A DNA stretch of 63,112 nt, the filler included, from Nemertoderma westbladi (lineage: Eukaryota > Animalia > Xenacoelomorpha): assembly GCA_032718475.1 (NCBI GenBank). It is 3 parts of 3 records of this genome, joined end to end, with 100 filler letters (N's around TTAATTAATTAA, not from the genome) between each part and the next. Parts side by side here need not be neighbours in the genome. Positions count along the whole stretch, not along the records: positions 25,750 to 56,108 come from JAUCBJ010005297.1; 2 more parts are not named here. One strand, given 5' to 3'. Within the stretch, counting starts at the first letter, position 1, and each line of letters starts with the position of its first letter. Below the pieces are notes generated by a model. That model searched no databases. It was given only the letters and a program-made list of their open reading frames with translations, and was not told the origin of the DNA. The position numbers were made by a program, and so were the translations under genes. Shown here one piece after another: positions 3,697 to 56,208 of the stretch.

Positions 3697-6600
3697 ATGA
3701 ACGCCCTGAAGACGGCATGTCGTTATTTAAGCAATTTCAACTTAAATCCTGGAGTTAAACACGACATACGCACTTTGTTCGCAACAAGACAGAAAGTAAC
3801 TAGAATACCTGTACAAATTTGGTACCTGAAACAATGCAGAACTCAGACTCACTCTCCTGTTTACTTACGCGATATTTATGTTAGGACTGCGAGGCACCAC
3901 CAAGACTTAGCTGAGTATGTGGTGAAAAAGATATTAGGCCGACACATTACAGAATATTATACTAACTTAAGAATCTGTAAGCACAGCTGGTTTTGCCAAT
4001 ACCGGAATTTCCGAATCTGGATAAGTAAACATATAGAGGCCGGTACGATAGGCGAAGACTGGAACACTCTTCTGCGATTTGTGGAGTTCTGGCTCTACAC
4101 AATTGACCAGGGAGAACAGAAAGAACGGAGGAACATAGTTTCGAATAAATTGATCAGCATAAAGATGTGGCACGACCGATGGCGAACGAGAATGACCCCC
4201 CGTTGGCTTGTGCCGCAACGCCTAGTTAGACGTCCCTTGATTGACGTAATCGGAAACGGTAAAGGTGTAAAGACGTTCGACAACGTCGTTAACCTTTCGT
4301 CAACCCAACTAAACAGGAAAGAAAGGGACCTGCTCAGTCTGGGTTTTAAGTTCATCCCTACTGGGAGACCCAATCGTTCAAATCTATTGGATGCGCATGT
4401 CGACATTTCCTGCCTAGCCAGCAATCTGCGCTACGCCATCCTTAGGAAACAACGCGAAGACGACACCATCGATCTGAATCAAACCCCCGAACCACGGTTA
4501 ACCACCCTCGCAAGCGAGGTTAACGACAACGAGACGAACCAGGAGGTATCGTTCGATGTCACACCGTTAAACGTCGGATTCCCGTGGACGGAGCCAAACG
4601 ACGTAGAAGAAGACGACGGGGACGAACTTGAAACTTTGGACACGATGTTCGCAACTTTTTCAGTAAACCAGTCAAGAAGAGGAGACTCTGCGGTAGTAAG
4701 AAAACTGTTTGGGGGAGACGTGAGCGCGGGCCCAACTCCTCAACCACTGGTAAACTCGAGTACACCGATTGTACTCGGACCAAGTATAAGCCTTCCAGTT
4801 ACCAATACCGGTACATCACCCGAACTGAGGGTACAGAACCCGACGGACACACCGAGGAGAGAGGGGTTGTTAACTTTAAACCTAACCCGGCTGCAACGGG
4901 AGGAACCAATAAATCGAAGAATTCCAGGGTACGAAAGAGTTTCTCCACCGCCAACAGCGATACCACTAGAATACAAACCAGTGAAGATCCCCAGTAAATG
5001 GAGATATGTCGCGCCTGTGTGCGATAACCCAACCATTGAAAGCACGATCTCCGAGCTCCACAAAACGATAGAGAAAGAGATGAAACACGTAGGCAAAAAG
5101 ACTAAAAACAGAAACATTTCTGAGGAGCACCACAAATGTTTAAAGAACCTAAAGAATAACAAAGACATAGCGATTGTACAAGGAGACAAGACGGGAAACG
5201 TCATCATAGTAGATGAGGAAATTAAACAAAAAGAAATTGCCAGAATTTTGACAGATGAGGATACATATAAGAAACTTCCCTGGGACCCAACTAATAAGTA
5301 CCTAAAACACCTAAAAGACACTTTCCGGCTTATGGATCTCAACGAAGGACCTCTTAAAGACTTCTTACACGTGAAACGACCAGCGATGGGATATGTATAT
5401 CCCCTTTTTAAAGACCATAAGGATCGAGACCAATGGATCGACTGGGGCAATGGGATCTCCGCACCGAAGGCGAGGCTTATCGTCTCGACTACGGGAACTC
5501 TCGTCGAACGTCCCGCAAAACTGCTGGACTCACTCATACAGCCACTACTGTTACGAATGCCACATTATGCCAAAGATTCAAAATCGGTGAAAGAGAGGAT
5601 TCCCGTAGGATCATACCCCAGGGCGACTTTTATGTCCCTAGATGTAGTGGAAATGTACCCTTCAATATCCTTTGAAGTCGCTGTTGAAGGGATTACCGCC
5701 GCCGTAAGGGAGAATGAGGACATTTTAGATAAAACGGGGTATACTTTAGATCAAATTATTCAGCTGTTAATGTTTGTAGTATCCCACACATATTTTAAGT
5801 TTAAAGAGGGATTTTACGTACTGACCAAGGGGTTGGGTATGGGTGTACCGGCGGCGAAGGCGATTGCCGTTTTAGCCGTCCACCGCCTACACACCCACGT
5901 GGGCCTTATCACCATGTACGGTGCCATCTTTTTCCATACCTTTGTAGACGATGGTGAAGCCATTTTCGATTACGCCGTATCGGATCGAACCAAAGAGAAC
6001 ATTATATCTGAGTATAATAACGCGGGGAGGGAAGTGTTTGGAACCGATGACATTAAGTTTACATTTGAATTTTCAAACACTACATCCGTATTTTTGGATA
6101 TGGAACTGTATAAATCAGTACGGGGTGAAATAAAAACCCGAGTGTATTTTAAACCACTTTCGCGGAAGTTACCCGTTCCTTATTTAAGTAACCATGACAA
6201 CCAGTTACTGAAATCAGTGGTTAGAGGCCAATTGTTACGATTTTGGCGCCTGACCGGCGGGGTAGGGGGTGTTGATTATGAATCTGCGAGGGATCGGTAC
6301 CTCACAGACTGTTGGGTGTCGGGATATCCGCAGGAGTTCCTAGAGCGACTCCGAGAAATAAAGTGGGATAAACGACGGACCCCTCGAAACAGAAATGACG
6401 AGAGGGGTGGGGATTGCTTTTATTTCAAAATTGATGGAACTTTTAGACCGTGCGTAAAGACTGTGTTGGTCAACAACAAACGCGCCTTAGCCGAGGTAGG
6501 GGCTAAGGTTATTGTCACGAAGAGAGGTGGACTAAACTTGGGGAATTCCTTGATAGTGAAACGCGACTCATCAAGAGGACAGGGAAACGCACCATGTGGA

Positions 6601-12624: not shown

Positions 12625-14723
12625 TTCGGTAGTTGTAAGTCAAGTAAAGTGAGTGTCAAAGTATCGAGTTTACCGTAAACGGTACTAATTACAGTCATAT
12701 AAAATTAGCCTACCGGCCGATTCTATAGCAGATGGATAAAATTAGCCTAAACGGCCAATTTTACAGCAAATAAATGTCACGGAATAAGTATATAATAAAA
12801 TTAGCCTAACGGCCGATTTTATAACAAATAAATCGGATAACGATATGCGTTATCAAAAGGTAAATTAAATACAATAATACGGACTAATTCAGCAATGAAC
12901 AAAGAAATCATACGGAATGCATAAATACTTGAGACAGTGGAACCCACAATAATTTTAACTAATACGGTAATGCCTAACTTATTTATGCAACTTTCCGAAC
13001 TCACCCACTCCAATAATTCTCCAGAAAAACAGATTCCCAGATACAAACCGGACGTGAACCTTTCCGTTTTTAACGTTGCGGACGAAACGCGATTTTCCCA
13101 ACCAAAGTTGTTGAGTTATCTATCTCCCAAACTTGCTAAACACGGTCTTGCTCCCGTTACAGTCTAGAAATGAGTTCTGAATCCTGAAAAACAAAAGAGT
13201 TAGGTTTTACTTTTACGAAAATTTTGTACCGGTACAATATGGTATTTAAACCCTTTTTAAACACCGGTATTCAATTCCAAAAAATATTTTACACGCGGTT
13301 CAAATCAAATTTTATTTCAAAAAATTAGCACTTAGCTAATCAAATATAAACTTTTACCTCAAAATACCAAATTTTCAAATAACTTTAGTCCTACCGAACC
13401 GTAGTTCAGTAAAACATATTCCTACTAAATGGAAGAGACGGTAACAATACCTGCAATATCCTACTGTAAAGTTTGTGAATCAAATCATAAATCCGACCTT
13501 CTCACCAAAACAGTAAACTCTAAGTAAGCGAATATATTGCAGTATTGATCTCTTATAACCGGTGAGGCAGAAAACAGTCTACGAGCAGACAAACTTCGAT
13601 AAAACAAAATCCCGCGCAGCGAATCCTAAAATCAGGCTGACTCACTGACGGACTAAGGGGCTCGTATACTTTGCCGCGGTGTGATTTATATGGTTGGGCA
13701 AAGAGACGCTAGCTAGGTACAGAGGCAGAGATTTGGAGATGTCTAACTAGCGAGCAAAGTGCAGTAAGGACGAAAGTTAATTTTATATATTTTGAGGTGT
13801 AAATAATTTCTAACGCGCGTGTGTCAATTCTGAACGGTCAAAAGCAGTTTTGCTCCTTCACATATATAATTACTGGGTACAGTGTGCATTTTACGAAATA
13901 TTCTAATTTTGTAACTTGTAGGTCCAATACTCACGAATGATAAGGTTCCTTCCCCTCTTGCGTATTTCCAGGACTCAAATTCAGGCATAAGGTTAATGCT
14001 ACGCCCAGAATTCGGCAATTTTAGGTACCAGGTCCCTGATACTAAGAAGAGATGTGTTAGTTTACTACTGTAGGCGTACAGTTACTAATAGCTATCCTGG
14101 CGTCTTATCTAGAATTTTAGTCACCCAGGTAGGCTGGGTAACTTCCTATCAGGACGTTGGCGGGGACACGGTAGATGTTAGTATCCCTAATAGCCTCAAT
14201 TTATTTGCGCCTAGCTGTAAACTGCCCTACCGCCTGAACGGTACAATCCCAATTCAGGTGAAAACACAGCAACCCTCCTAGCCTACAAGTTCTAATGCGA
14301 TGGACACTGTTGTACTGCAAATAGTCGCAAACGCACCTGTACTTAGCAAGAGTTAGGCGTACAGTTTGCTGCACCCTACCAATTTGTATGCTTCGTACCG
14401 ATGTGCCTACGTCCTATCTGCGTACTAGTATCTGCCTGCTCTTTCCCTCTCCCCGTAGGAATATGAAGGTCTACTGCGGTTTTTCCTGAATCAAGACAGT
14501 ACAGTCCCTAAGATGTAATTTTAGGCTCACAGCGTGTCACTACTTCTACCTTTTGATCTTTGGTCTTAAACTTAGGTAGCAAGGCGTCGAACGCTGTCTA
14601 ACCTTTCAGGCGATGGGCGAATAACTCAAGATGGTATTGCGGGTTGTCTCTGGTCTACATTCCCCCGATGTTCCCGTTCATTGCTGCGGCCCGATCTCTA
14701 GCCGGCCATCCTATCCTTAAGTT

Positions 14724-25649: not shown

Positions 25650-25749
25650 NNNNNNNNNNNNNNNNNNNNNNNNNNNNNNNNNNNNNNNNNNNNTTAATTA
25701 ATTAANNNNNNNNNNNNNNNNNNNNNNNNNNNNNNNNNNNNNNNNNNNN
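25650..25749. other. Assembly gap with TTAATTAATTAA linker
   Basis: 100 nt of N with an artificial spacer; same format at 56109-56208. Confidence 0.97.
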
Positions 25750-26619
25750 CCACTCTAACTTCTCTCTAGTTCTCTCTAATATCTCTCTAGTTTTTAATTC
25801 ATACGCTGCCAGATTTATCTCCTGCACCCTTCTTTCTTTTGCGGAGGATGTAGCAGACTTATGGGTTGTGACAGATTCCCTCCGCCTTCCCGTTCTACTG
25901 ACTCTCCCCCGCCTCCCGGAACTCCCTCCGACCGACGAGACCGAATCCTCGGGGTCAACCTCGGATTTGCCCTCCTGCGGTCTCCTCCAACCCACTAATT
26001 TTACTCCCCGGGCATCGACTAAGTATGGCCCTATGTACAATACACTAGGCTGCATACCCTTATACTCCCATAGTTCAAGCAGTTCGCTGGCAACCCCTCT
26101 TGCTCTCTCCTCAGCTAGTTCTCCCTGCCCAGAACGCACTAGGTAATCAAAATGTTCATTTGACTCACCTAGTCGCCTTTTCAACTTCACCTGCTCTATC
26201 TCGGCCCCTCCTCTAGCTTCTTTCAGTTGTTCCCGGGACGCGGCATAGGCTCGTCGGAGCTGGACGACCCTGACGTCCTCGTCGCCGACATCTCCTATCT
26301 CCCTCCGGGTCCGGCGTCGTACCGGCGGCTCCACCGTTGCCGTTCCGGTGGGCCGTCCGTCGCCCTCGGCCTGTGGCTGGCCGGCGACATCGGCACGTCG
26401 AACGCCATCGTGTGTCGACTCGTCTCTCTCTTCTCCCGACTCGTCTTTCCCTCCTCTCGACTCGCTCTCTCGTTGTAGACGGCCCCCCTCCTCTTTGGTT
26501 GCCGGATCGTTCATCGACGGATCCGGCGTCGTGGGTCGATACCGTCTCGCCGTGGCCTTGCGGATCGTTAGATCGTCGTCCGGGGTCCGTGGCGGTGTCG
26601 TCTTTCCTTCTCTACTCAT
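25750..26619 (-). CDS. N-terminus of a BEL/Pao-like Gag, cut by gap
   Basis: Charged low-complexity ORF with VDPEDSVSSVG...S-rich then coiled coil, a pattern common in BEL Gag; starts 38 nt downstream of a candidate LTR. Confidence 0.6.
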
Positions 26620-26656
26620 TCTCTAGTAGTTAGCTCGGGCCGTTGGATCTTAACAC

Positions 26657-27002
26657 TGTGACGGGATCCACCGAGGATCCCAGTTTATCTGGTTATCTTG
26701 ACTACACGTCCCCGCCGTGTATGTGAAAAGGCTGAAAGAGTTCTGATGTTGATCCGTGTATGTATAGATATATAGATAAGATGGAAATAAGCACAGGTGA
26801 ATAAGTACCGGTAATGCACTGAATAAGATAGGCTGATAGCAGTGGACGGGGACGGTGTTAAGAGTTCCCGTACCACCCTAACTAACTGACTAACTAAGAG
26901 TGAATGGGATAACATGATGACTGGCAATATATATTGCACGGTTGGCCACGTGGTGTTACTCAGTCGATGCCTTCCCCCCATTGGCTAATAGCTCACTTCA
27001 CA
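26657..27002 (-). repeat. Candidate 5' LTR (346 bp)
   Basis: TGTGA...TCACA termini; CCAAT and TATATA on the minus strand; directly upstream of Gag-like ORF. Confidence 0.55.
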
Positions 27003-27242
27003 CCCTCTGCCCTGCGGGGGTGTTTCCCCCCCCCCCCCCCCCCCCCCTGCTGAGGTTACTTTCCTCTCTCTCAGAGGTGTAACCCCTGACCCCTATTGTG
27101 TGTGTGTTCTCTGGGGCCTATTGTCCCCATTTACTGGGGTGACACGAGGTTGATTGGTAATCAACCTCATGCTCCCAATATTGCTTAGAGGTGCTCTTTC
27201 CCACTTTATGGGGGTTTGGTGAGGTGGAATTGAATCCGCTCA

Positions 27243-29142
27243 TAATCCGAATTTAAATAATGCAACAATTAAACGAAAAGGTATATTTCCCTACGAGTAT
27301 CTGACAGATTTAAATAAATTCAATGATTCGAAATTACCATCAATAGACAATTTTTATAGTAAATTAACACAAAATACCTGTACACCCGAGGAATATAGTT
27401 TTGCCAACACATCATGGAGTCAGTTTGACTGTTCAAATCTCAAGGATTATCTTTTAGCATACTTAAAACTCGATGTTTGTCTCCTCGCTGATATATTTGA
27501 GAACTTTAGGAGAGTATGTAGACAAAACTACGAATTAGAAGTAGTTTACTATTGCAGTATCGCAGCTTTCACTTATGATTGCGCCCTGAAATACAATAAA
27601 TGTAAGTTAGCATTAATAAAAGATTACCAAACATATAGAGATTTTGAAGCATCTATTAGAGGAGGGGTTTCATTCTGTCGAAAGCATTACATAGAATCAA
27701 ATATACCAGATACTGATAATTATGATCCAAGCAAGGAAGAGTGTCATATTTTCAATATAGATTTTAATTCCTTGTATTCGGGTAATTTAAGTAAAAAGCT
27801 ACCTGTTTCAGGTTTTGAACAACTCAACGTTACATATTTAGAGAATGCTGCTTCCAGAAGAACTAATGAACTATTTAACAAATCTTGATACTGAAGGGGA
27901 TATTGGGTTTTTCTTAATTTGCGATTTGAAATATCCCAAAGATATTCATGATCGAACATTAGAACTACCCTTAGCCCCAGAACATTTAAGCATAAATGAA
28001 ACAATGCTTTCACCATATATGAGAGACCAATTTAATAATGTATGTAAACAAAGAGGTACTAATAGCAAGTATAAGATGTCTACTCCAAAACTTATGTTGA
28101 CACAATTCGATAAAGAATTTTATCATTTACATTTGAAACTGTTAAAATTTTATATAAAACAAGGTTTAATTGTTACTAAGCTACATAAATTGTATTCTTT
28201 CCATCAAGACTTTGTATTTAAACCCTATATAGATTTTAATATTAATCAAAGACGATTTAGCAAAAACTTATATTGAAACAGCTGTTGCAAAGCTGCTGAA
28301 TAACTCGTTATTTGGTAAAACAATAGAGAAGATACGAGATCGCTGTAATTTCCGTATTGCTAATAGCAATGAGAAATGCGATCAATTGGTGAAACGTATA
28401 AATCACGAAAATTTCATGATTTATAGCAATTCCTTATCGGGACACTTATTAGTGAAAGACAGCGTGACACTAGATAAACCAATCTATGTAGGTAGTACTG
28501 TCTTGGATTTAGCAAAACTTGATATGTATGAGCTGTACTACGATAGATTTACCTATTGAGAAAGAATTAAACTGCCGAATTGAAATTGTAGCATCAGATA
28601 CAGACTCATTAATAGGTTGTTATTATAATACATCGCAGAGTAATTTCTTAAAAGCCTTAATTCGAAATAATATTCTAGATACCTCTAATTATCCCAAGGA
28701 TCACCCTCTCTACAGCGATAAAAATAAATCCAGACTCTATTACTGTAAAGACGAGTTGTGCTCACGAGAGATTAAGGAAGCTGTATTTTTACGTCCGAAG
28801 TTAGATTCAATTTTGGAATGGAATGAAACGAATGTACGACGGGCGAAAGGAATAACAAGAGCTGTTGTGGATAAAAAAATTTGCCACGAAGATTATTTAA
28901 GAGCATATAAGGATAACGAAGAAATTTCCAAGGAAACGCATCAATTTCAGAGTCAATTACACAAAGTGTACACTGTAGCACGAGATAAGTTTGCTCTCAG
29001 CGCATTTGACGATAAACTTTATTGGGTTAATAAAAATCATTCACTTCCCTGGGGTCACTATCAAACCAAGGTTGTAAAACCAGTAAAAAAAATAAATATA
29101 CCTATTTATCGGGAACCAAACAATGAACTATCAGATAGTTAA
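27243..29142 (+). pseudogene. Protein-primed family B DNA polymerase, 5'-truncated, several frameshifts
   Basis: RKGIFPYEY, YLKLDVCLLADIFENFR, SIRGG, IDFNSLY, KLLNNSLFGKT, KPIYVG, SDTDS, LDTSNYPKDHPL, KDE, RAKGI, DDK. Confidence 0.93.
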
Positions 29143-29677
29143 TAAGAATGTAAGTTGCCATAGAGTGTCAGCGATTAACTTGAAAGAATTAAAAAATCAA
29201 TTATCCGGTAAACACATACTCAATCCAAATCAGTTTATATATAAGATATTTGGTGCCACATTATTAATATTTAAAAATGGTCGTATTACATTATTAGGTA
29301 GTAAGTATAATTTCCAAAAAGTAAAAAAGCATATATTTGATAAAACAAGTATTAATTTGATTTTAAAATCTGTTAATTTATATACTTATATTTTTAGTAT
29401 TAACTCTGTAGTCTATAGGTTATTGATAAACAATACCGGGTTTTATGTTGTCTTTGATAATGTACAACTTCAAGTTATATATGAACCTGAAATTTTTAAT
29501 AATTGCAAAAAAAGAATAAATAATACCGTAGTCATTTGCTGCTTTCATACCGGTAAATGTACTTTAATGTGTTCACCTAGCAAATTTCACATTTATTACC
29601 CTATATTTAGTAAACTGGTTAATTATTTATTAATGTTTGGTGTTGTGACTTTAGGTGTAGAATATATCAGTAATTAG
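29123..29677 (+). CDS. Divergent TATA-binding-protein (TBP)-fold protein, 184 aa
   Basis: Aligns by eye with both TBP repeats: YQIVN..S......INLKEL; NPNQF..KI.GATLLIFKNGRITLLGSK (TBP NPKRF...TTALIFSSGKMVCTGAK); YEPEIF (YEPELF); VVICCFHTGKCTL (VLLIFVSGKVVL); IYYPIF. Confidence 0.8.
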   Translation: MNYQIVNKNVSCHRVSAINLKELKNQLSGKHILNPNQFIYKIFGATLLIFKNGRITLLGSKYNFQKVKKHIFDKTSINLILKSVNLYTYIFSINSVVYRLLINNTGFYVVFDNVQLQVIYEPEIFNNCKKRINNTVVICCFHTGKCTLMCSPSKFHIYYPIFSKLVNYLLMFGVVTLGVEYISN

Positions 29678-29764
29678 AAGGTGAAAATTAAAAATTATTA
29701 TTTTTCAATCGATCTATCGGTAGTTAGGGAAAACTAACCTCGTTTGAATAAGCATGACTCTCAC

Positions 29765-30565
29765 AGGCTGACTGCGTAGCCTAGCTGGCCTTTGCCTCCC
29801 CTCCTGACTGCGTGGCTGGCTGCGTGGCTGGCTGCGTGGCTGGTTGCGTGGCTGGCTGCAAAGCTGGCTGTGAAGCTGGCTGCATCCCCAGCAGCGTGGC
29901 TGACGACAACTAGCTGCGAGGCTGAATGCATGCATCTGATTGTAACTAGCTCACGATATTGCATACATTGGGTTAGTTTGTTACTACAGGTACTGTTACA
30001 TTAATACTGTAGTACTGCAGTACAATACTAATCGAAGGAAATCAGTATGCTCTATCTGACTATACTGTTACAACAACAGTGACAGTACTGCAGTACTGTA
30101 TTGTTTGGGTAGGGGATCTAATCCCTGTATGTGAGACCCATGTGAGCAATCCAGGTCATGACTGCAGTATGGCAGTATGCTAATCAAGGTTCGGGTAGAC
30201 TGCAGTATCCTTATAGGTGAAAAAAAAACAAATGCTATTGAATCAGATTACTGCTGTACTGATTACCGGTAGACCGCGACTGCAGTGTTGGAAGAGTAGA
30301 ATACTACCAGTAAATTTCAACTCCAACTGCTAGCGATAGGTTAGTAATTAAGCATTTTCAGAATCAAGGCACAGCCTGTCTGCAGTATGCTTATCATATC
30401 AAGGTACTGTCTGACTGTTGTATGCTTATCAAGGCACAGTCTGACTGTAGTATGCTTATACAGTCATAGGTGGAAAAAAAACAAATGCTATTGACAGATT
30501 GAACTAGATTACTGATACCGGTAGACCGCGACTGCAGTGTTGGAAGAGTAAAACACTACCGGTAC
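29765..30565. repeat. Non-coding repetitive segment: 12-bp GGCTGCGTGGCT array, GACTGCAGTATGC motifs, ~110-bp duplication (30215 / 30467)
   Basis: Directly visible; GC content differs from flanking Polinton genes. Confidence 0.75.
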
Positions 30566-30972
30566 TGATAAAGTGGATGACAGTTGTGGATAGGCCTATA
30601 CTAAATTATTGAATTTAACAGTACCGGTACCAACAGGTTAACATTACATCCTGTACAGATTATGTTGCATTTCTGACTAATATTACTAAAGTTATATCAC
30701 TGGTCAACTACTGTATGTGTTATTAGTTTGCGACATATAGGATGTTTCGCAATACCGGTACAACTATATTAGAATGATATCGGGAATACTTACTGTATAT
30801 GTTACGTCTACGTCATATTGTTAAATGTGTATGGTTAACCTAGCGCAATTGATTTTTTTTAGAAAACTTGTTGTAAAAAAATTATATTTTATTATATTTT
30901 TATATTAACATCAAGACCATCACCAAAATAAAATTATATTATATCCCATCACTTTACAAGCTTAGAGTAAAC

Positions 30973-31547
30973 CTACTGTACATCATTCACCGCAGTTATT
31001 TTTTTCTGTTTATCACCTGTCTCAGTTAATCGCTTCGTTACATACCCTCCAATCCTTTTCGCTGAGCAGTAATTCAAGCAGCTATCACCATCTTTGTGAA
31101 AACTACATTTATCTTCTACAGTAGTTAATTTATCATGGAAAGGACACGGAGTTAAATAATTGTAATATAGTCGAAATATTCCCAATTTGTTCATCGATTT
31201 TGGAGCGTAAACATCAAGTTGGGTATTTAATATTGCGGCTTTCATCAACCCGAATACATATATATTATATTTATTTTTTAATTGTCTCTTCATGTACTTT
31301 TTAAAGTCATCATGCGAAATGTCGCCGTAATCCCAGGGTAAATACGATGTAATATCACGTAAATTGTTTACATGGGCTTTATTATTAATGCCAATAAGTT
31401 AATATCAGGAGGTCCTTTAATTAAAAACGTCTTTATATTAGTTTTACTGTATTTAGAATCGAATATAGCAAATTCTTTAAATACTATTGGATATTCCTTA
31501 TTGTCTATCCTATAATATTGAAAATCAACAAAAATAACATTATCCAT
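30973..31547 (-). pseudogene. Polinton accessory DEDD/DnaQ-like protein, one frameshift
   Basis: MDNVIFVDFQ...FKEFAI...KGPP, then shift, LPWDYGDI...IYVFGLMK...C.FH...C; resembles a small exonuclease-fold family I recall from invertebrate Polintons. Confidence 0.55.
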
Positions 31548-31591: not shown

Positions 31592-32020
31592 TTACAACGC
31601 TTGTTGGTTTATTTTATAATAATTAACAAGCCATTTATATAATATTATTTCATTTATTTCCACATTATTTGTAAATGCTCTCATTGGATAGTTTGTGTGA
31701 ATTCGATTTACCAAGTAATAAAGACAGTATAACCCGCATGTGGTCCTTCTATAGTCTTGAAATTGCCTGCGAGTAGTACACCACCTTGCTGAATTTTTCT
31801 CAAGCCATTTTTCAATACATCTGTTTGGAAATTTTGGACCAAACGAATTAAATAATTCAGCTTCATTATCTCGTATATATATAGCCACCCAATGAACACC
31901 AGGTAGATGCGCTTTATCAGTATTTACTATTAACCCATAGTCTCTTCGCTTACTATTATCTAATTTAGGTAATTTATTAGATAGAAATGCCCCCAAATAG
32001 TGACCACCCACTGGAATCAT
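31592..32020 (-). CDS. Adenain-like cysteine protease (N-terminus replaced by capsid fragment)
   Basis: IVNTD....PGVHWVA, FNSFG, Q......TCGLYCLYYL. Confidence 0.9.
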   Translation of the reverse strand: MIPVGGHYLGAFLSNKLPKLDNSKRRDYGLIVNTDKAHLPGVHWVAIYIRDNEAELFNSFGPKFPNRCIEKWLEKNSARWCTTRRQFQDYRRTTCGLYCLYYLVNRIHTNYPMRAFTNNVEINEIILYKWLVNYYKINQQAL

Positions 32021-33007
32021 ATCAAAAATGTATGTTCCATCAGTAAAATTAGGCTCGTATATTACACCACCTACTGGAAGACCGTCTACAATCAGTTCCG
32101 CACGTCTAAGGTTAAAATGTTCAAATTTCAACGGATTACTAGTTAATTCACCCGAATATGAATTATTTGTTATAAAACCGATAATAACCAATTTGGGTTT
32201 TTTACCATCAAATATGTTTGCTTGGGTGTAATTTGTGGTTTGAGCGGGAATAGTAAATGTAGTAACCTCTTTTTTTTAAAATTGATATTCAATATTGTAG
32301 CTCTCTAAACGTTTTAGATGGCTGCTTTCCATTACCGGATTAACCTCCATTCTAGGGATTAGGATCTTTACTTCATCTAATTCTAGCCGAAGATTTGTCA
32401 CAGCGTTTGCGTTTGGAGTGATTTTAAAAATAAACGAATTTGATACTTTTCTAAAATGCATTCTTAAATCATACCCGGGTTGTATTATTTTACTTTCAGT
32501 ATCAAAATCAATCGTCAATCCACTTACAAATTGCAATTGTTTACTAAAGGCATCAGCAATAGGATGCACACCAGGATTAATTTCATTTCCATGTTCGGAT
32601 AAAGGCTGACGAAAGCCGCCTACCCCCAGTAGCCCATTTTTAGTTTCATATGTAGTAAAAAGTAAATTGGATAAGTACGACTTGTAGAAATAATGGTTAT
32701 TACTATTTTCAACCTGCTTCTCATTGAGGTCTATTTTAATATCACTCCACATAGTTCCAGAGGGGTAATTCAACATATAAATGTGTGAGTTTTCAAGCCG
32801 TCTATCCCACCGTACAGTACATTTTGTAATTAATAACGCATCTTGCAGTTTCGTATAGAATTCATTGGATCGCGGTACAAGAAATGTTACTTCCCGAGAC
32901 TCGCTTCTGAGACTAGATACCGGGTAAATTGTTTCATAATGCTTTGCTTTAAATTCAGTCTGTATTGGCAGTGTAGAAAATAAATCTAACTCCTTAATAA
33001 TTGACAT
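32021..33007 (-). pseudogene. Polinton major capsid protein, frameshifted at ~32275 and C-terminally deleted
   Basis: ELDLFSTLPIQT, YPVSSL, WSDIKIDLN, YFYKSY; downstream frame IIGFITNNSYSG..TSNPLKFEHFNL...VDG. Confidence 0.85.
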
Positions 33008-33242
33008 TATTAAAAAATACTTTTTTCGCAGTGTTTGAGTTTGCTTTTTTTATTTTTCTATTTTTACTACGGCCATGATGTATGTTCATAGACATTGGTT
33101 TAGTCGGTCGCTTTAAATCTCTATAAACTTTTTCTACAACTGATCTTGTTGATGGTTTCATTTTATTTAATGCTTTATTAATAACCGCATTAGCCTGCTG
33201 ATGTAAGACCCGCTTACCTTTTGGTATTACGTGTTGTCTCAT
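32994..33242 (-). CDS. Small basic Polinton protein (core-protein-like; may be frameshifted continuation of 33251-33568)
   Basis: K/R-rich, overlaps MCP start. Confidence 0.5.
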   Translation of the reverse strand: MRQHVIPKGKRVLHQQANAVINKALNKMKPSTRSVVEKVYRDLKRPTKPMSMNIHHGRSKNRKIKKANSNTAKKVFFNNVNY

Positions 33243-33250
33243 AAATAAAA

Positions 33251-33568
33251 CTAAAGTAAAGCTTTTTGTAAAACCTTTTTTGCTAATGGCTTTCCAAATT
33301 TCTTCAATGTAGATAAAGCATCTGTAAATATACCTTCCCCGTGTTGATTTGTTTGCATACCTCTGCGATAACGTTGAAATCGACGTTGTTTTAAGTTTGG
33401 ACCAAATGCTCCAATTTGTTGACCGTAAGGGTCTATATATGAACCACCTCGAAAAACAGGAACTTGCATCGAGCCTCTCGTACTTCTACCACCTTTAAAA
33501 ACAGCAAGATTTGAGTCTGCACCACCATATTGAGGTTTACTGTATCTTTGAAATAAATCGGAATCCAT
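33251..33568 (-). CDS. Polinton core-like protein with adenain-type cleavage motifs
   Basis: QYGG, VFKGG, VFRGG, QHGEGIF followed by amphipathic helix. Confidence 0.7.
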   Translation of the reverse strand: MDSDLFQRYSKPQYGGADSNLAVFKGGRSTRGSMQVPVFRGGSYIDPYGQQIGAFGPNLKQRRFQRYRRGMQTNQHGEGIFTDALSTLKKFGKPLAKKVLQKALL

Positions 33569-33574
33569 TTTAAT

Positions 33575-34411
33575 TTATTTTTTTAAAGTGTAAGGTAATA
33601 GAAGTTGTGCCGTATTAAAATTCAAATCTTTTCCTTCTTTGTCTGTTATTTCAATATGAATGTATGTTATCTTATATGATTTTTTTACAGGGATATAATG
33701 AATTGTATCCTTGGCAAATTCTTTATTTATTATACCGCCATATTTCACATCATCAGGTATCACCACGCGACGAAGTAAAGCTAAGCCAAAATCATTAATA
33801 TATTCATTTTCAATTATATTAGTAGTCACGTACATATAGAAAGGAATAGAATTGGGTGGTTGAGGACATAAAAATACCATTTGGTAAGATTTTTCTTCAT
33901 TTCCGATAATCTTTATTAAATAACCCTTTATATTATTTTTCGTCTTCAAAATAATTTTAAAATTTGGATTTAAATTCGCACCGAGATTATTTTCAGTAAT
34001 TCCAAAATAATAGGCTAATTGTTGACCTATAAATAATTCTCGTACAGTTTTCCCTAAAATAAATTGCAATCTATTTTGCTGAGTATTGTCAACTATTTGT
34101 AATTTATCTTTCAACGCCCCAGTGTTAAAATAATCTATAATGTCATTAATACTGTAGAACAAACCAGATGGAAGTGTATCCTCAAAATTTTTTTTCCCTT
34201 TTTTTAATAAAATAACATTCTCTACATTGTTATACATGGATGGTAATGTGGCTAAGTAAAATATACTTTTTATACCAACCACCCAGTTTTCGTTTGGATT
34301 TATAGGTAAGGCACCATGAAAATTGATCTGATAATTACTATTAGTATTACGGAGAAAATCAATTGGACATGAGTTACTTGGTAGCCTAACATAGAATTCA
34401 TCCATCACCAC
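33575..34411 (-). CDS. Minor capsid (penton) protein 1
   Basis: EFYVRLPSNS...NTNSNY, WVVGI, MYVTTNIIE, LLRRV, YIPV, IHIEITD..G..LNF. Confidence 0.85.
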   Translation of the reverse strand: MVMDEFYVRLPSNSCPIDFLRNTNSNYQINFHGALPINPNENWVVGIKSIFYLATLPSMYNNVENVILLKKGKKNFEDTLPSGLFYSINDIIDYFNTGALKDKLQIVDNTQQNRLQFILGKTVRELFIGQQLAYYFGITENNLGANLNPNFKIILKTKNNIKGYLIKIIGNEEKSYQMVFLCPQPPNSIPFYMYVTTNIIENEYINDFGLALLRRVVIPDDVKYGGIINKEFAKDTIHYIPVKKSYKITYIHIEITDKEGKDLNFNTAQLLLPYTLKK

Positions 34412-34419
34412 CTATTATT

Positions 34420-35270
34420 AACTTAAGTGTTATAACAGTGCGACCACCATTGAAATTAATTAATTCACCTTGACCGTCACGTAAAGTAATTAAGATTGTT
34501 TTTAGTTTTTTATTCAACAATGAGTAATAGCAATAATGCTCTCGTATTCGTGATTAATATATTTTCGATTTAATTGTGTTAAAGGACAGGTTCTTAAGAG
34601 CGGAGCTAAAGCGTCACCAACAAAAGAGCTTTCAATAATATCTGTATATATGAAGATTGTATCTTTATTACGAGTAATATTTGTGGGATCTGGAAAATCT
34701 AAAATACCAATTTCTGAAATTTTTGGTCCACTATAATTTAAAATTAAAATCGGCTGTTCTATATTGCTTAATTCATCTATGGTAGTGGTACTGTATATAT
34801 CCCAATTCGGAATACCCGGATGATTCTGATCCAATAATTGTTTTAAGCATAGAATTTGTATTAAATCACCGCGTAGACTTAATTGTATTTTTTTCAACTT
34901 TTTAGGAAATTTAAATTTAATTCTAGAATTATTTGTATTAAAAATGAATTCGAAATCTTTATATTTCGCTTCAGAATTAAACAGTTTATTTATATCATCA
35001 ATAATGACTTGAATAGAGCTATGCATACCAGCAAATAAACTGTATAATTTGGCATCTTTTGCATCTACCCCGATTGACAGCGAGATTTGAGTTTGTAGAG
35101 TAATATTGCTGTACGTTGCTTGGTATTGAATCTCGGCAAGCCCAATTTTAGCGTTTGGACCAATATAAAATTCTTCGGCTAAATCAACAGTAAACTCGCT
35201 AGGGTTATTATTAGGATATATGTTTAATGAGCTATCTGAAACTAGAGTGATATATGTATCCTATAGCCAT
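34420..35270 (-). pseudogene. Minor capsid (penton) protein 2, frameshifted
   Basis: YITLVSDSS...YPNNNPSEFTV.L, IGLAEIQY, IFIYTDIIESSFVGD..APLLR, ITLRDGQGELINF. Confidence 0.85.
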
Positions 35271-35518
35271 TATTATTTAAGCTCTCTCTGCTTGACTCCA
35301 TTGTACATACTGTACTGTATAATGTTAAACTATAGACATCTGTGACCACATTCATTGTTTCTACAGTATATGCGAGAGATCAATATTTAAAGCGAATGAA
35401 CTATAGATATTAGACTTACAGTATAGTATAGTAATATCATTCGAGTTAATATTGATTAATTATGGTCATATGTGACCATTATTCGCGCAATGAATTAATA
35501 TACAGTATAAACCTAAAC

Positions 35519-36611
35519 TTATTTAATATGCTGTATCCACGACTGTTTCTTGGATCCAATGAATCTGACTAAATATTCTTTTTTCCCATTACGCACACGT
35601 TCTTTAAGTTTGCCAATATTTTTGTCAATCGGAAGATAAATAATTACTACTCGGGTGGACCTTTTGGAGTTCGTAAGAATAAAATGAACCATTTATTATA
35701 GCACCAGCGCTGTCCTTAATATCAAACATTACCGCTGGTACTCTGTCCAATCTGACTCGATGAATAATAAATAATTCACGTGTCTATTGTTCTCGATAGC
35801 CTTTAGCAAAAGCAGTACGCGCAATAGATAATCGTACTGTATCTCCAACTTGAAATTTTATTTTCTTGTGATTAATCTGTCTATATTTCCCATATAATCT
35901 ATTAATTAATTCAGTTCATTAAATTTATTAACTTCAATGGGTGTCATTTGTATAGTCCTATGAAATGACCTATTATACGCGAAAATAAGCTTCGGTAAAA
36001 TTTTTATCCAAACATTATTCCATCGTTGCGTGAAAATTTTGAACATCTTTGTTTTTAATGTTCTATTGAATCTCTCGACAATAGCCGCCTTATTCACAGA
36101 GTACATTACGTAATAACGTACTCCAATAGTATCTAAATATTTCCTTACAGATTTATTTAGAAACTTAGACCCTTGATCAGTCGCGATTCTGTTTGGTTTA
36201 GCTTTCTGGAATATTTTTTGCAATATACTAATAATTTCAATACCTGTTTTTGTTTTCATACCATAGGCAAAAGCAAACCGGCTAAAGGCATCAGTACATG
36301 TTAATATATAGTTATAATTATTATTTTGTGATTTATATTGCTGCATGCATATCCACCAGATCTATCATATGTATATCTTTTAACCCTCCCGTAAATATTT
36401 TAGATGTTGGATAATGATGTCTATGTGGTGCATGAAGGGAGTATGTCTTTTGCCCGCTCAACCATTTCTGGGCTTGAGATGGTTTGATCTTTGCAGCTTT
36501 TGCTAATTTTGCGATACTTGCAAAACCCGCAGGTGATGAAGGATCTGAATAAATTCTTAACAGTTTTTTGTCTAAGCTTCGGCTTAAAATCGGTCTCATC
36601 TTGCGTGGCAT
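35519..36611 (-). pseudogene. Retroviral-type integrase with C-terminal chromo-like domain, frameshifted
   Basis: IYSDPSSPAGF, IDLVDM, LTCTDAFSRFA, TDQG, AAIVERFNRTLK, YNRSFHRTIQMTP, FQVGDTVR, GKKEYLVRF. Confidence 0.92.
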
Positions 36612-36829
36612 CTTTTCGACAACCGCAAGTAATATGTATATTCAAATCTCTTATAAAGGGCATCACCGTAAAAACAGCTGATTTTTTTATTTTCTTGAAG
36701 TTGATGTTTTGAAGGGTTTTCTTTTTGTAGTATTTACTCTAGGTATATCTTGAGGTTTTAAATCAGTAGCTAACGGTTTACTCGATACTAAATATAATTT
36801 TCTAAATGTTACTCCTGTTTTAACCATTA

Positions 36830-37153
36830 TTACCGTCCAAGGTTAATTCTTTTCGCAATAGCCGCTCCAGCGGCGGCGGCACCAGCTCCCGCAGCGAGTT
36901 TCGCGCCAATGCCGAGTAAGGGTATTAGAAATGGCAGTATACCACCAGATTGATTGGTTAACTTTTTTCTGTAACTTGATATATTTTTTGTGTTGCGGTT
37001 GAGTGATTTTAATACCTTTTTATAACGACGAATATTTCTAAATGAATGAGGGGTCAATTGTACGTTACCTTTTAGAACATTTAATGCAGTATTTACAATG
37101 AGCTTTGTTAGCGCTGCGTAGAAATTCCAATTCGTCACGATATTTCTGCACAA
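36830..37153 (-). CDS. Conserved small Polinton protein
   Basis: ALNVLKGNVQL...QSGGILPFLIPLLG (cleavage motif plus hydrophobic helix). Confidence 0.75.
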   Translation of the reverse strand: MCRNIVTNWNFYAALTKLIVNTALNVLKGNVQLTPHSFRNIRRYKKVLKSLNRNTKNISSYRKKLTNQSGGILPFLIPLLGIGAKLAAGAGAAAAGAAIAKRINLGR

Positions 37154-37212
37154 GTCTATTCATTGTTGCAACATTATTGTATATTGTTACAAAATATTAA
37201 TTATTATTCTTA

Positions 37213-37869
37213 TTATTCGCTACGTTTATAGTCAATATAATTTTTAATGTAACAATTATGATTACGAAATATATCCGATCTAAATCTTAAATGTTCGGGT
37301 GTTTCCTGTTGTAAATCAATTAAGAAATGCGAAAATGGTTCAATTGTCGCATCTTGATAGGAATCTACTAAAAATTTGGTCTGCCCTGGTAACATCTGCT
37401 TCGCGAAATTTAAAACCGATAAACTGTCTCGTGGATTTTTCATTAATACCAAGGTATGGCTATTAATTGATCTTGTACGGTTATGCTTCCCTCCGTAAAA
37501 CATGTTTTGCGTTATGAAACAAATAAATATATTGGAATGATGAGCTACCTTAGTAAACAATACAGTTAAGGCTGTACTGGACTCATTTTCTGTTAATAAA
37601 TCATCTATAATTAATAAATCTCGACTATTCACTAAACTATCTATATTTCCAGGCAAACCTTTGTAAAGGTGAGTAATACCTGGAATAGTCGGGGGATTGC
37701 TCCCGTAACAATACAATACTCACAAGGGGGGTTCGTTGAAGCAACCATTCTTGTGTTTAATTAAATTGCCAACAAATGTAGACTTTCCGGAACCAGATGG
37801 GCCAGAAATTATCATACTCGTTCCCATTTGAAAGTTTAAATTATATGGACCTGAATTAAAGTCAGCCAT
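37213..37869 (-). pseudogene. A32/FtsK-like packaging ATPase, one in-frame stop at ~37720
   Basis: ISGPSGSGKS, LLIIDDL, FTKVAHH, ITQNMF, KNPRD. Confidence 0.92.
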
Positions 37870-37914
37870 TTATTATTATTATAAATCATATCAACATATT
37901 GATATATATATATC

Positions 37915-38530
37915 AACGCTGACGCCACCTCGTATGTCCAGACCAACCGTTCAACTGAGTCTCTCCTGGAGGAGAGGTGTCGGCTGAAGAAGCGACACTA
38001 CCAGACCGTCTGCAATGACCGGAGGATGGCCTTCACCCCCCTGGTTGGCACCACCGATGGTGTCTGGTGCACCGAGGCTCAAATACTAATTCGCCATCTA
38101 GCGGAGTCACTTGTGGCTCGGCGGGATGGTATGCGTGAGAGGGGCCTCGCGTGCGTGCTGGGGGGTGTTCGCCGGCGGCTGCAGTTCGCGCTCCTCCGGT
38201 CTAGCTCCCTCTGCCTCCGTGGAGGTCGGCGTCCGTGGCGGGGCTTGGGATTTGGAGACGGTGCGGGTTTGCGTGGCGCTGATTTGGGTAATACTGATTA
38301 CAGTAATTATTGTATTAAGTAAATTTATCAGCATTTATTAATCATTTATTCTACAGTAAATATATTATTTTATTTAACTGAAATTATAATATAATAATAA
38401 TAATTTTGAGATTAACAAAAAAATAATATTAATATATAATTAAATAATAAATCGTGCATTTACTGTTGTATAGTCCCGTTGTGCAGTATATATATATATT
38501 GAGATTTAAATAAACATTTGATTTGATTTG
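37915..38530 (+). mobile_element. 3' fragment of a CRE-type non-LTR retrotransposon (restriction-like endonuclease C-terminus)
   Basis: GC-rich island; KKRHY...C.....FTPLVGTTDG....EA...LA...RRRLQFALLR...LCLRG; ends AATAAAC(ATTTG)3. Confidence 0.7.
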
Positions 38531-39094
38531 ATATTTATTATTATTATTAAGATATATCAACAATACAATATAATATAATATAATATAATATAACATAAAG
38601 AACCATCATCACCATTACTATGTATATATGTAACAATTCACAAAAAAAACAGCATTTTACAACAAAAAGTATATACAACTGTAGTATTAGTATATTTATC
38701 ATGGCAATCTTTCGTTCTGCTTATTACCTTATTTGAAAAGATTGTGTAATCGTATACCAGCAATCAAGTTATCAATACCAGTTATACTTCTTAGTTTGAC
38801 ATTTACGTTCTATACCACGTCCGTAGCATTTAGTACTGGAAATATGACTTAGAGTATGTTCCGTCAAAGTGCGAATTACTCTCATACACAAATCATTGCA
38901 AAGAATACCTTCATCAAGTTTAAAATAATACTTTTTTGGTTTTATACCTCTTGAAGATGATTCATCTTGATTGATGTTTTAAATTAGAATAACAAATACT
39001 ATAATTTGTGTTTATTAATATATCCATTTTTCTTAAATAACAAAACCAAAATCGTTAAAATGTTGATAAAATATTTATAATATAGCTGAAAGAG

Positions 39095-39520
39095 TCAAGA
39101 ATCATCTTCATTGTCATCGGTTTCATCAGTGGTTACAAGGGTTTCTTTCGAAATAATAACTATAAACGAAGCCATAATTTCATAAGCATTTTTACGATCT
39201 AATTTGATCACAAACTTTTCACATTTATTGCTCGCTATATTACCACTATATTGAGTAATAACAATAAAGTTATCTGACATTGATAAAATTGTGAATTTAT
39301 CTAAATCATCTTCTTCTTTGTAATCTAAAAGGTAATTAGTAGAATCTACCTCACCGAAAATATCAATAGATCGTAGTTCTTTTCTTGCTTGTTCAGAAAT
39401 ATCTATTTTAAAATTAGGTTGTGAAGGACAATAAATAGTGTTACCAATAACAATAAAAGTAAGATTATCTAAAGTATTAAATGTATGTCTTATTACAGGC
39501 GCAGGTATATCAGTAGACAT
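39095..39520 (-). CDS. Hypothetical Polinton accessory protein, acidic tail
   Basis: 141-aa ORF preceded by (AAT)n-ATG like other Polinton genes. Confidence 0.55.
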   Translation of the reverse strand: MSTDIPAPVIRHTFNTLDNLTFIVIGNTIYCPSQPNFKIDISEQARKELRSIDIFGEVDSTNYLLDYKEEDDLDKFTILSMSDNFIVITQYSGNIASNKCEKFVIKLDRKNAYEIMASFIVIISKETLVTTDETDDNEDDS

Positions 39521-39663
39521 TATTATTATTATTATTTTATGTAATAAAAATTAAATAACAGCGACAAGACAGATAAATAAATATTAATAATATTTTTGCT
39601 ATTCTATTCATATATTTATATAGATCATTAAATTTTTATATATACAACCAATCAACTAAGAAC

Positions 39664-40515
39664 TACTACTAGGATCGGCATGCTGCATTGCAGCTGCATT
39701 TTTAAGAATGCTGTGCCGGCTTGTCAACAAAATTGCACCGCCACAACTCCCTATCACCCATGACATTTGCTAGATCATCCGCATCTTTAAGGCCAGTGTC
39801 CTTTAAGATGCGTCTCAAGAAAGTCATGGGCTGTCCACCATGCTTATTCACTCCATGAGGCTGCCAAAGTACAAGATTATGCACTGGCTGGTCCTCACGG
39901 CGAAAGCAATGTCCTGCAAAGTGGAGGCGATTTTGTTCTAGTGTCAAGCTTGAGGGAACCAATGAGACACCTCCAATGTTATATAGTGTCTGGTTGGAGA
40001 TGTGTGCATTGTACTTGACACAATGAACCCGGCGTAGCATTCTTGTGAATGTGCCATCCAGAGATTCGGTGTCCTCAGCAGCTAGAGCCCAGCATGGACT
40101 CCCATAGAGGAGTACTGGAACTACTGCTGCTCTAAATAATCGGACCTTAAGTTTCCGATTAATTCTCGGTGACTTCCAAATCCTGTAGTCAGGTCAGGTA
40201 TTCTAGGTCATTGATCAAGAAAACTTGCCACCTCCATGCAGCATAAAGGAGGTGCCACCTGTAGCTGCATAGACCCTGTTACTAGGGCAAATCTGGTCCT
40301 GTAACTAGGACCCCCTTCGTTCTGGGATAAGGACGCCCTTGGTCCTGGATTAAGGACCCATATACTTGGCTGCAGGGGTATATGGCCTGACCAGGCAGAT
40401 GGTGAACTACCAATGGCTGGTCAGGAGTAGAGTGTTCTCATGTCCACTCTGAGAGCACTTCACTGCAACCTGCACCTGGCAGCAAGGGTACAGGGCATGA
40501 CCCAGCATGACCTGT
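39664..40515 (-). mobile_element. 5'-inverted, internally deleted RTE-type LINE insertion
   Basis: 39664-40185 is the RT 3' end (VLLYG..CW, RLHFAGHCFR) with a (TAG)n tail on minus; 40189-40515 is the opposite-orientation 5' end matching the reverse complement of ~57835-58143; TSD AACTAAGAAC at 39654-39663 and 40516-40525. Confidence 0.85.
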
Positions 40516-52680: not shown

Positions 52681-54366
52681 ATGAAGTTACTACCATACTA
52701 TGGGAATCTTACACCTGGAGATTGTATTAATATTTTCAATCAAAAGGAAATGCAATGGATAAATGAACAAAGTTTCATAGTAACAGAGGGCCGTTATATG
52801 CATTGGCCATTCGGAAACCACCACCAAGAGACGATGCCATACGGAAAGAAATACAGGCAACAGTTGAAAATTACATCGTATCTTCTAGCTAAATTCACCC
52901 CTAAAAGGATTGGTGTCATTATTGACAGAAGGGTAAACGAGTGGATAATTTCGAAGCAAAAAATAGGCGTAATATCTACAATAATTCAGGAAGAAGTGAG
53001 ATATTTGCTCGCTGCAATGATGTTAGATCTAGTCTTTGATCAAGAAGCCTCAGATGACATCGTGCGGATATTTTACACGGCTCACAAAAACATGAATTCA
53101 GTCTTTATTGGTACAGGATTGAGATCAAAGAAAGTCCGTCAAGATATGCACCAGGAATTAAAGAAGTTGGTTTTGAATTCGGTAGAAGATGGACATTTTC
53201 GGGAGTTTATGGAAGAGAATGGGAACATTGTAATGCTTACTGAGCATATTGGAACGTTGATATTCTATGCTGCGATTCAACAGATAATGGAAAGCATCGG
53301 TCATTGTATGACCGAGATTCTCTTAATCCCTAGAGTTTATGATAAGTTGTTGCCGCTTTTAGAGCGCAATGCAGCGGAATTAGACAGTGACGAGCTAATT
53401 CATGATACATACCTGGATTGGGTAGTCAATGAGTCACTCCGTATGTTTCCTCAATTCCCTAAGACAACAAGAGAAGTTTTTGAAACATTCACTTACAAGG
53501 GTCTTACATTCACTAAAGGGGAGACCGTCGGGTTAGATATACGTGGATGCAACAATATGATGTGGGATGATGGCGACAAGTTCATTCCTGAGAGATGGGA
53601 AGACTGGGGTCCACAATCAGTGCCGACAAAGGAGACACCTGGTAAAGGGTACTTTATATCATTTGGTCAGGGATACAGGAGGGGCTGTCCAGCCAAAACA
53701 TTTGCTAGACAAGTTACCAAAATAGTATTGGTGGGTTTGTTGTCTCGGGCTACTTTCTACATACCAAAAAGCTTCATACACATTCCACGCATGGCCAAGG
53801 GAGTGCCGGTTGTCGTATCGTTTAATCGAGATGAGAATCCAGGGCATAAGGAGTTAGTGAACCGACTTCTTGATAAAGCTGAGTCCGAACAGGCCACTCA
53901 TAACTTATTGAATATTCCATTCTGGAGTGGCCTCGGTTTTTGGAAACAATGTGCGAAGATGAAAGCCTACGCCATGAACTTGGACCCCGGGATTTTTGCT
54001 GCCTCCATTACCTTCATCGACGTCAGCATTCGATATCTGTTTAAAAAAAACTCTGCGTCGCTTTGGATTATGATTTTAGAATTTTTTTCTTGGAGTTTTG
54101 GAATTGATGGTATCCAATCTATATACTTTACAGTGGCCATTTTGACCCTTTGGCAATTTAATTTACTCAATTACTTGATAAAATTTATATTTCAAACAAC
54201 ATTTAACCCTATTGATCCAGGTATGTATTGGGGTCAATATGACCCCCTCCACCCCCCCCCCCCCCCCCCCCCCCCACCCGCCGCGCCACCCCCCCCCCCC
54301 GGTTTTTATTACTATAACTCTGAAACTAACGCAGTTGGGAATCCGAAGTTTTACGAATTTTTCTAA
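52681..54366 (+). CDS. Highly divergent cytochrome P450, intronless CDS; codons after ~54206 are MITE-derived
   Basis: K-helix VVNESLRMFP, FTKGETV, FIPERW, heme loop SFGQGYRRGCPA. Confidence 0.9.
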   Translation: MKLLPYYGNLTPGDCINIFNQKEMQWINEQSFIVTEGRYMHWPFGNHHQETMPYGKKYRQQLKITSYLLAKFTPKRIGVIIDRRVNEWIISKQKIGVISTIIQEEVRYLLAAMMLDLVFDQEASDDIVRIFYTAHKNMNSVFIGTGLRSKKVRQDMHQELKKLVLNSVEDGHFREFMEENGNIVMLTEHIGTLIFYAAIQQIMESIGHCMTEILLIPRVYDKLLPLLERNAAELDSDELIHDTYLDWVVNESLRMFPQFPKTTREVFETFTYKGLTFTKGETVGLDIRGCNNMMWDDGDKFIPERWEDWGPQSVPTKETPGKGYFISFGQGYRRGCPAKTFARQVTKIVLVGLLSRATFYIPKSFIHIPRMAKGVPVVVSFNRDENPGHKELVNRLLDKAESEQATHNLLNIPFWSGLGFWKQCAKMKAYAMNLDPGIFAASITFIDVSIRYLFKKNSASLWIMILEFFSWSFGIDGIQSIYFTVAILTLWQFNLLNYLIKFIFQTTFNPIDPGMYWGQYDPLHPPPPPPPPPAAPPPPPGFYYYNSETNAVGNPKFYEFF

Positions 54367-56108: not shown

Positions 56109-56208
56109 NNNNNNNNNNNNNNNNNNNNNNNNNNNNNNNNNNNNNNNNNNNNTTAATTAATTAANNNNNNNNNNNNNNNNNNNNNNNNNNNNNNNNNNNN
56201 NNNNNNNN
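56109..56208. other. Assembly gap with linker
   Basis: N run with TTAATTAATTAA. Confidence 0.97.

Follow-up and report, generated by a model that had tools for sequence, protein, structure and literature searches.

A divergent TBP-family gene in a Polinton lineage and its possible role as a late-gene switch

To our knowledge, Polintons lack an RNA polymerase, and it is of interest how the expression of their capsid genes would be timed. An open reading frame (ORF) resembling TBP, which directly follows the DNA polymerase gene (pPolB) of a Polinton in Nemertoderma westbladi (assembly GCA_032718475.1), raises the question of whether such an element has a TBP of its own and what it would use it for. 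Here, we analyzed the whole stretch of 63,112 nucleotides that holds this locus (the window), in which the N runs at 25650-25749 and 56109-56208, with their TTAATTAATTAA spacer, are artificial contig joins.

The ORF at 29123-29677 (+) is open and intronless from ATG to TAG and encodes 184 aa; at its composition, a frame of this length would stay open by chance with a probability of about 2e-8. It matched Pfam PF00352 with 39.2 bits against a curated cut-off of 22.9 (E 6e-10), in two stretches that correspond to both TBP pseudo-repeats, as had been claimed. HHalign against a canonical TBP profile gave 94.8% for the window protein alone and 99% for three Polinton TBPs taken together (the other two are described below). 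All of the 30 feature hits obtained in ESM-Atlas were TBP clusters (best 0.95), with a recognition score of 1976, which is under the tool threshold, and the nearest clusters had half or more viral members. Identity between Polinton TBP and cellular TBP/TRF was about 20-28%. Sequence searches with the window protein returned no relatives among 50 candidates, 1.84 billion representatives or viral contigs, only one chance match (E 8) among plasmids and a single weak match (E 0.055) in the PDB. Judged by its sequence, 29123-29677 is a real TBP-family gene of a Polinton. The predicted 20-nt overlap with pPolB was confirmed for the window copy, in which the last pPolB frame ends at 29142; since most other copies of the element differ at the pPolB stop codon, the value of 20 nt holds for the window copy. 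The two genes are in different frames, which ruled out a pPolB-TBP fusion. On the other hand, the suggestion that the ORF has the same AT-rich composition as the Polinton genes did not hold, as its GC content is 25% versus 32% in pPolB and the capsid module.

To characterize the surrounding element, its genes were compared with Pfam and with ORFs of related loci (L031, L035 and L045, among 67 related loci from a metagenome search with pPolB). The polymerase gene that the original prediction had paired with TBP is present at 27223-29142 (+; PF03175, E 2.6e-6), but as a remnant without its 5' part and broken into four frames (27223-27888, 27842-28276, 28233-28559 and 28513-29142). On the other side of TBP, all on the minus strand, lies the capsid module. 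It begins with a broken gene in two frames (30973-31547), which is at the same place as an L035 ORF (4144-4608) with no phmmer link to it and no Pfam match, and which we take to be exonuclease-like from a motif only. This is followed by an adenovirus-like protease (31592-32020; PF00770), a broken gene presumed from motifs and gene position to encode the major capsid protein (MCP; 32021-33007; no Pfam match; E 4e-14 to the MCP-type ORF of L031), a basic core-like gene in two frames (32994-33568; weak, E 0.002) and two minor-capsid genes, presumably penton-like (33575-35272, comprising 33575-34405 and about 34514-35272; E 3e-7 and 4e-10 to the L045 counterpart). Further along are a broken rve integrase (35520-36611; PF00665, E 2e-10), two small basic genes that L031 and L035 also have (36687-37163; E 1.6e-5 for the larger one) and a broken A32-like packaging ATPase (37213-37869; E 5e-33 to the L031 ATPase, a Pox_A32 protein). 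The capsid labels were based on homology to ORFs of L031, L035 and L045 together with motifs. The Polinton gene set in the window thus includes pPolB, rve integrase, ATPase, protease, and major and minor capsid genes. The right terminus at 39656-39670 ends in (ACT)3, an end motif as in the accessible text of PMC8097293; by the criterion of terminal inverted repeats, AGT/ACT ends and a 6-bp target duplication, no left partner of the terminus at 39670 was found within the window, and the left part of the element may lie beyond the first N run (25650-25749). Because pPolB lies on one side of TBP and the capsid module, continuing to the (ACT)3 end, on the other, TBP is interior to the element, between two convergent modules; this position ruled out a neighbouring host gene. 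The window copy is decayed, a fossil.

Several other features were observed in the window. Between TBP and the capsid module lies a gap of 1.3 kb (29680-30970), in which a 12-bp unit is repeated in tandem (29804-29883) and 30-bp repeats occur (30363-30459); sequencing runs cover it deeply up to 30050. An internal piece of MCP continues in frame into the protease (31592-32275, minus strand), which suggests a deletion in this copy. Two accessory ORFs by the right end (39095-39520 and 38772-38978, both on the minus strand) had no Pfam match. Fragments that we assume from motifs to be retroelement-like are found at 25702-27220, in the place of the missing 5' part of pPolB, at 37900-38300, upstream of the ATPase, and at 39700-40500, beyond the right end. 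An intronless cytochrome P450-like ORF of 561 aa (52681-54366, plus strand; Pfam E 1e-15) lies amid repeats.

Other copies of the element were examined in four DNA runs, in which 841, 448, 1239 and 22 contigs matched 28450-30050. TBP and pPolB were both covered, showing that other family copies carry the TBP ORF, with the reservation that depth does not equal copy number. A 650-nt contig of run X4 was 83% identical over 293 nt of TBP with no gaps, and a joint of equal depth connects it to the pPolB end; a contig of a diverged variant keeps the order of pPolB followed by TBP. Codon classes were assigned from the listed differences only (40 of 182 entries, 17 of them in the TBP ORF, and 40 of 73 entries). 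Among these, nine of the 10 TBP codons that vary between other copies were synonymous, against 23% expected (p 1.4e-5). The listed TBP differences comprised eight synonymous and four non-synonymous codons in the diverged contig and six and seven, respectively, in the 83%-identical contig, and none of those listed in other copies was a stop codon. Of six listed codons private to the window, five were non-synonymous and one was synonymous, which suggests that the window copy is drifting, as expected after insertion. With many copies in four runs and the synonymous excess between them, TBP appears to be a selected gene of the family and not a host retrocopy. On this codon evidence, it is under purifying selection across the element family and drifting in the window copy.

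A profile search of the 67 pPolB loci identified two TBP carriers, L031 and L035. Their proteins (148 and 149 aa; Pfam E 2e-17 and 5e-18, respectively) were also the best matches to the window TBP among these loci (E 2e-5 and 1e-4), and the order of their late-module genes is nearly as in the window. In both, TBP is on the minus strand upstream of the ATPase, opposite in strand to pPolB and 6.5-7.3 kb away from it. TBP did not follow pPolB in any of the 44 loci with at least 700 nt past the pPolB match, which ruled out a conserved adjacency, and in L032, the nearest pPolB relative, the gene after pPolB is KilA-N (4909-5661, plus strand; Pfam E 3e-21), suggesting that this slot takes variable accessory genes. 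Thus, the predicted coupling of TBP to the polymerase stands for the window's family and fails in its relatives. In a pPolB tree of 39 of the 67 loci and the window, the window, L031 and L035 fell in one nine-member group (SH-aLRT 97, with a long-branch warning), whose other six members are short contigs. In the TBP tree, the three Polinton TBPs were on one side of a branch (93/98) outside eukaryotic TBP, on very long branches and with a long-branch warning, so that the phylogeny, from which the host's own TBP is absent, did not point to a recent host retrocopy. Considering the nine-member group and the differing places of TBP in the three carriers, TBP is likely a trait of this Polinton clade with a mobile position, and by the same comparison its coupling to pPolB is local to the window's family. 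Overall, the idea that a Polinton lineage carries a TBP-fold gene of its own is supported, and the gene is family-wide and under purifying selection.

The related loci had some additional features. Searches of viral contigs with pPolB gave no match. An ubiquitin-conjugating (E2-like) gene (13480-13977, plus strand; Pfam E 1.7e-12) is located by the end of the TBP-bearing Polinton L035. Related pPolBs (L031 548-3817 and P0002-P0010) contain an endonuclease VII (HNH-type) domain, a part that is missing from the window pPolB; such a domain has been described for pPolB2 in the accessible text of 10.1101/2023.08.22.554363. In all three TBP-bearing elements, a small ORF in another frame (window 36421-36663, L031 8084-8248 and L035 9463-9663, all on the minus strand) begins some 50-60 nt ahead of the integrase ATG. 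The N-termini of these ORFs resemble one another and end in Cys residues, and the ORF may be a genuine overprinted gene.

Residues of the Polinton TBPs are discussed with yeast TBP numbers, which were taken from Table 1 of PMC12529657 and mapped onto the Polinton alignments in this analysis. N69, L114, F116, YEPE, F190 and F207 were kept in all three proteins, which also have common substitutions (V71 to N, T124 to L/M and T215 to M/L) and a first stirrup that is three residues shorter, with an invariant Gln. The acidic stirrup YEPE, which is the contact for TFIIB, was invariant across 78 aligned sequences, including the three Polinton proteins. The original prediction held that all four DNA-intercalating Phe were kept. 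This was secure for F50, F125 and F141 of the window protein, which aligned with intercalating Phe of TBP, but ambiguous for F38 (in NQF), which meets the first one only with an adjoining three-residue gap. The same position is Tyr and Cys in L031 and L035, and residues 37-42 of the window protein are within a strand in the predicted model; for these three reasons, F38 may be a core-facing residue rather than an intercalating one. N7 of the window protein matches one central Asn, while the position of N159 is Ser in both relatives and the alignment of the window protein is ambiguous there. P191, which has been tied to a preference for T at box position 1 (accessible text of PMC12529657), was lost in the window and L035 TBPs. 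Helix H2 is largely absent from the L031 and L035 proteins, and residues 62-119 of the window protein are of ambiguous alignment. An alignment-guided model had pLDDT values of 79-92 over residues 11-80 of the first repeat and below 50 at 90-108 and 119-128 in the second. It best matched TBP structures (Foldseek E 5e-7; Z 9.7; rmsd 6-8 A, 8.1 over 170 aligned; TM only about 0.44), a match that is partly circular because the model was built on a TBP alignment. A single-sequence AlphaFold model of the window protein reached a pLDDT of 35 and had no TBP in its top 50 fold matches.

It is the N-terminal repeat of TBP that reads the 3' half of the TATA box, and the element boxes deviate from the canonical TATA sequence (TATAAAAG) in their 3' half. 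In L031 and L035, ATAAACA was found upstream of all late-module genes (7/7, p 1e-6, and 9/9, p 3e-8; uncorrected, with windows of the same module as the background). The box mostly sits 32-38 nt ahead of the ATG and was nearly missing on the opposite strand. It was absent before TBP in both loci and before pPolB in L031. A strict CA follows ATAAA in all 16 of these late genes, and canonical TATAWAWR precedes only one of seven in L031 and none of nine in L035. No ATAAACA occurs in the window, in which ATAAGA precedes three of nine late genes (p 0.002-0.005; all three occurrences on the strand of that module) and WATAARA, a motif defined post hoc, precedes six of nine (p 5e-4). The candidate late boxes, all on the minus strand, are TATAAGA at 36649-36655 (44 nt before the integrase ATG), with AATAAAA at 36685-36691 as a second integrase candidate, TATAAGA at 33670-33676 (108 nt before the core gene) and AATAAGA at 37208-37214 (51 nt before the small basic gene at 37163), and, post hoc, AATAAAA at 33048-33054 (47 nt before MCP), AATAAAA at 34508-34514 (109 nt before penton B) and TATAAAA at 31612-31618 (71 nt before the gene at 31547). 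Gene-specific distances in the window were close to those in L035, namely -108 and -98 for core, -109 and -104 for penton B, and -80 and -92 for integrase, respectively. The window box is loose and A-rich, resembling both canonical TATA and poly(A) signals, and the best case of ATAAGA, 36649-36655, falls within the first codons of the small overlapping ORF. The window box is the weakest among the three TBP-bearing elements compared. TATAAAC variants can be bound by host TBP, and PDB 1qn3 is, by its title, such a complex. An automatic motif scan of 26 loci of at least 5.5 kb returned a TATA-like top motif in L031, L035 and, weakly, L041, with too few ORFs in nine loci; as the contigs are partial, these loci are not a clean TBP-less control. 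Thus, the prediction that TBP drives late genes gains indirect support from the conserved boxes of L031 and L035.

Taken together, the highly divergent and selected TBP is probably a one-protein switch for late genes; the prediction is that it recognizes a variant TATA box and brings in TFIIB and RNA polymerase II of the host. Host machinery would first make pPolB and the viral TBP; early expression of TBP is suggested by the fact that TBP and pPolB have no late box. The viral TBP would then bind the variant box before the capsid, packaging and integrase genes, and once there it would recruit host TFIIB and RNA polymerase II via the kept acids of YEPE. The altered DNA face of the Polinton TBPs suggests a changed DNA specificity, and control by host TBP regulators might be weaker where helix H2 is short. 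More tentatively, with the chances somewhat against it, a clade of animal Polintons could have the smallest virus-specific transcription switch known: a bare TBP whose DNA face and box co-change between lineages (TATAAACA versus WATAARA/TATAAGA) and which uses host TFIIB and Pol II.

The same data may be read in other ways. The invariance of YEPE in three Polinton TBPs whose DNA face is much changed, together with the uncertain first intercalating Phe, would suit a decoy or modulator of host transcription. Such a protein would engage TFIIB or other partners of TBP in the host, so that host genes are dampened or redirected, and would not read viral promoters. Such a role is unlikely, as it leaves unexplained both the strict lineage-specific box before late genes and the retention of N69, F116, F190 and F207; the late-gene role fits better. 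About equally unlikely is a supplementary TBP of no new specificity, which would boost transcription from TATA-like promoters of the virus that are also recognized by host TBP, and might do so outside the control of host regulators. The boxes do retain a TATAAA-like core, those of the window are near canonical, and L045, with no TBP seen in 7.2 kb, has similar A-rich TATAAA-like boxes at similar places; however, the strict CA in L031 and L035, the rarity of TATAWAWR before their late genes and the DNA-face substitutions common to the three proteins all speak against it.

Binding of DNA outside transcription, such as at the termini or, jointly with pPolB, in protein-primed replication, would agree with the position of TBP directly after and overlapping pPolB in the window's family, including the diverged variant that keeps this order. 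We consider it quite improbable: in L031 and L035 the gene is on the other strand and kilobases from pPolB, L032 has KilA-N in the slot, and the different frames of pPolB and TBP mean that there is no fusion. A captured host TBP retrocopy or a drifting, functionless relic is already largely refuted and has very little probability left. The window-private codons would be in line with a relic, but the synonymous excess between copies and the TBP relatives in other Polintons contradict it. The window TBP is only 25% identical to a plant TBP to which three eukaryote-like TBPs are 64-65% identical, and its long branch (6.9) lies outside the eukaryotic group, in a comparison without the host's own TBP.

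Polinton particles have not been observed so far, according to the abstract of PMC8097293. If the proposed role of TBP as a late-gene switch is true, the pairing of a dedicated TBP with a late box of its own would constitute direct and testable evidence that the viral cycle is regulated. It would also be a minimal counterpart of the viral-TBP system of herpesviruses and a source of natural TBP variants with changed specificity. A co-changing TBP face and box, if true, would provide natural orthogonal TBP-promoter pairs and imply a timed early-to-late virion programme in Polintons. Given its decay and its box, the weakest among the three elements compared, the window copy mainly serves as a further independent lineage.

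With known Polintons/Mavericks, the element shares the (ACT)n end and two convergent modules that carry pPolB, integrase, ATPase, protease, and major and minor capsid genes. It differs in that the copy is broken and has no left end, and in carrying TBP beyond the eight core genes, among which, as originally predicted, the accessible text of PMC8097293 does not include TBP. A TBP gene was not mentioned in the accessible texts of PMC11071308, 10.64898/2026.10.13.758929, 10.64898/2026.06.19.733378, 10.1101/2023.08.22.554363, PMC8097293 and PMC12220804. The claim that such a gene is undescribed stands in part: we found no characterization of a Polinton TBP in the literature, where figures, bioRxiv supplements, Repbase and subscription papers may hold annotations, but the gene is not wholly unrecorded in such elements, since Starrett et al. 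use 'TBP' to label a gene of MELD viruses in figure legends of the section on non-animal datasets (10.1101/697771; PMC8502044). It is absent from the supplement text of PMC8502044. As in the present case, those legends associate a TBP-like gene with small dsDNA viruses or elements whose PolB is adintovirus-like, as a label only, with no residue, selection or promoter analysis in the accessible text.

Compared with cellular TBP/TRF (PF00352), the Polinton TBP has the two repeats and the kept residues given above and differs in the three-residue deletion of the first stirrup, in changes at V71, V122, T124, P191, L205, V213 and T215, and in helix H2, which is missing in L031/L035 and uncertain in the window. 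The TBP homologs of nucleocytoviruses (BFVD and Atlas hits) are also divergent viral TBPs, and viral members make up half or more of the nearest Atlas clusters; most nucleocytoviruses with TBP encode their own RNA polymerase, whereas no RNA polymerase gene was seen in the window element. The closest functional parallel may be KSHV ORF24, the viral TBP of beta/gammaherpesviruses, which has a more polar DNA face and reads TATTWAA late promoters (accessible text of PMC12529657). Herpesvirus-type partner activators, as in the five-partner complex, were not found among the ORFs scanned. The Polinton protein is a bare predicted saddle of 148-184 aa, without the Pol II-binding N-terminal or the extra C-terminal domain of ORF24, and unlike ORF24, it keeps the acidic residues that contact TFIIB (accessible text of PMC12529657). 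Both systems would combine a virus-encoded TBP fold of more polar DNA face with a variant TATA box before late structural genes (strong in L031/L035, weak to moderate in the window) and no viral RNA polymerase. By this analogy, the Polinton TBP likely works like the herpesvirus viral-TBP/TATTWAA system, without being a member of it.
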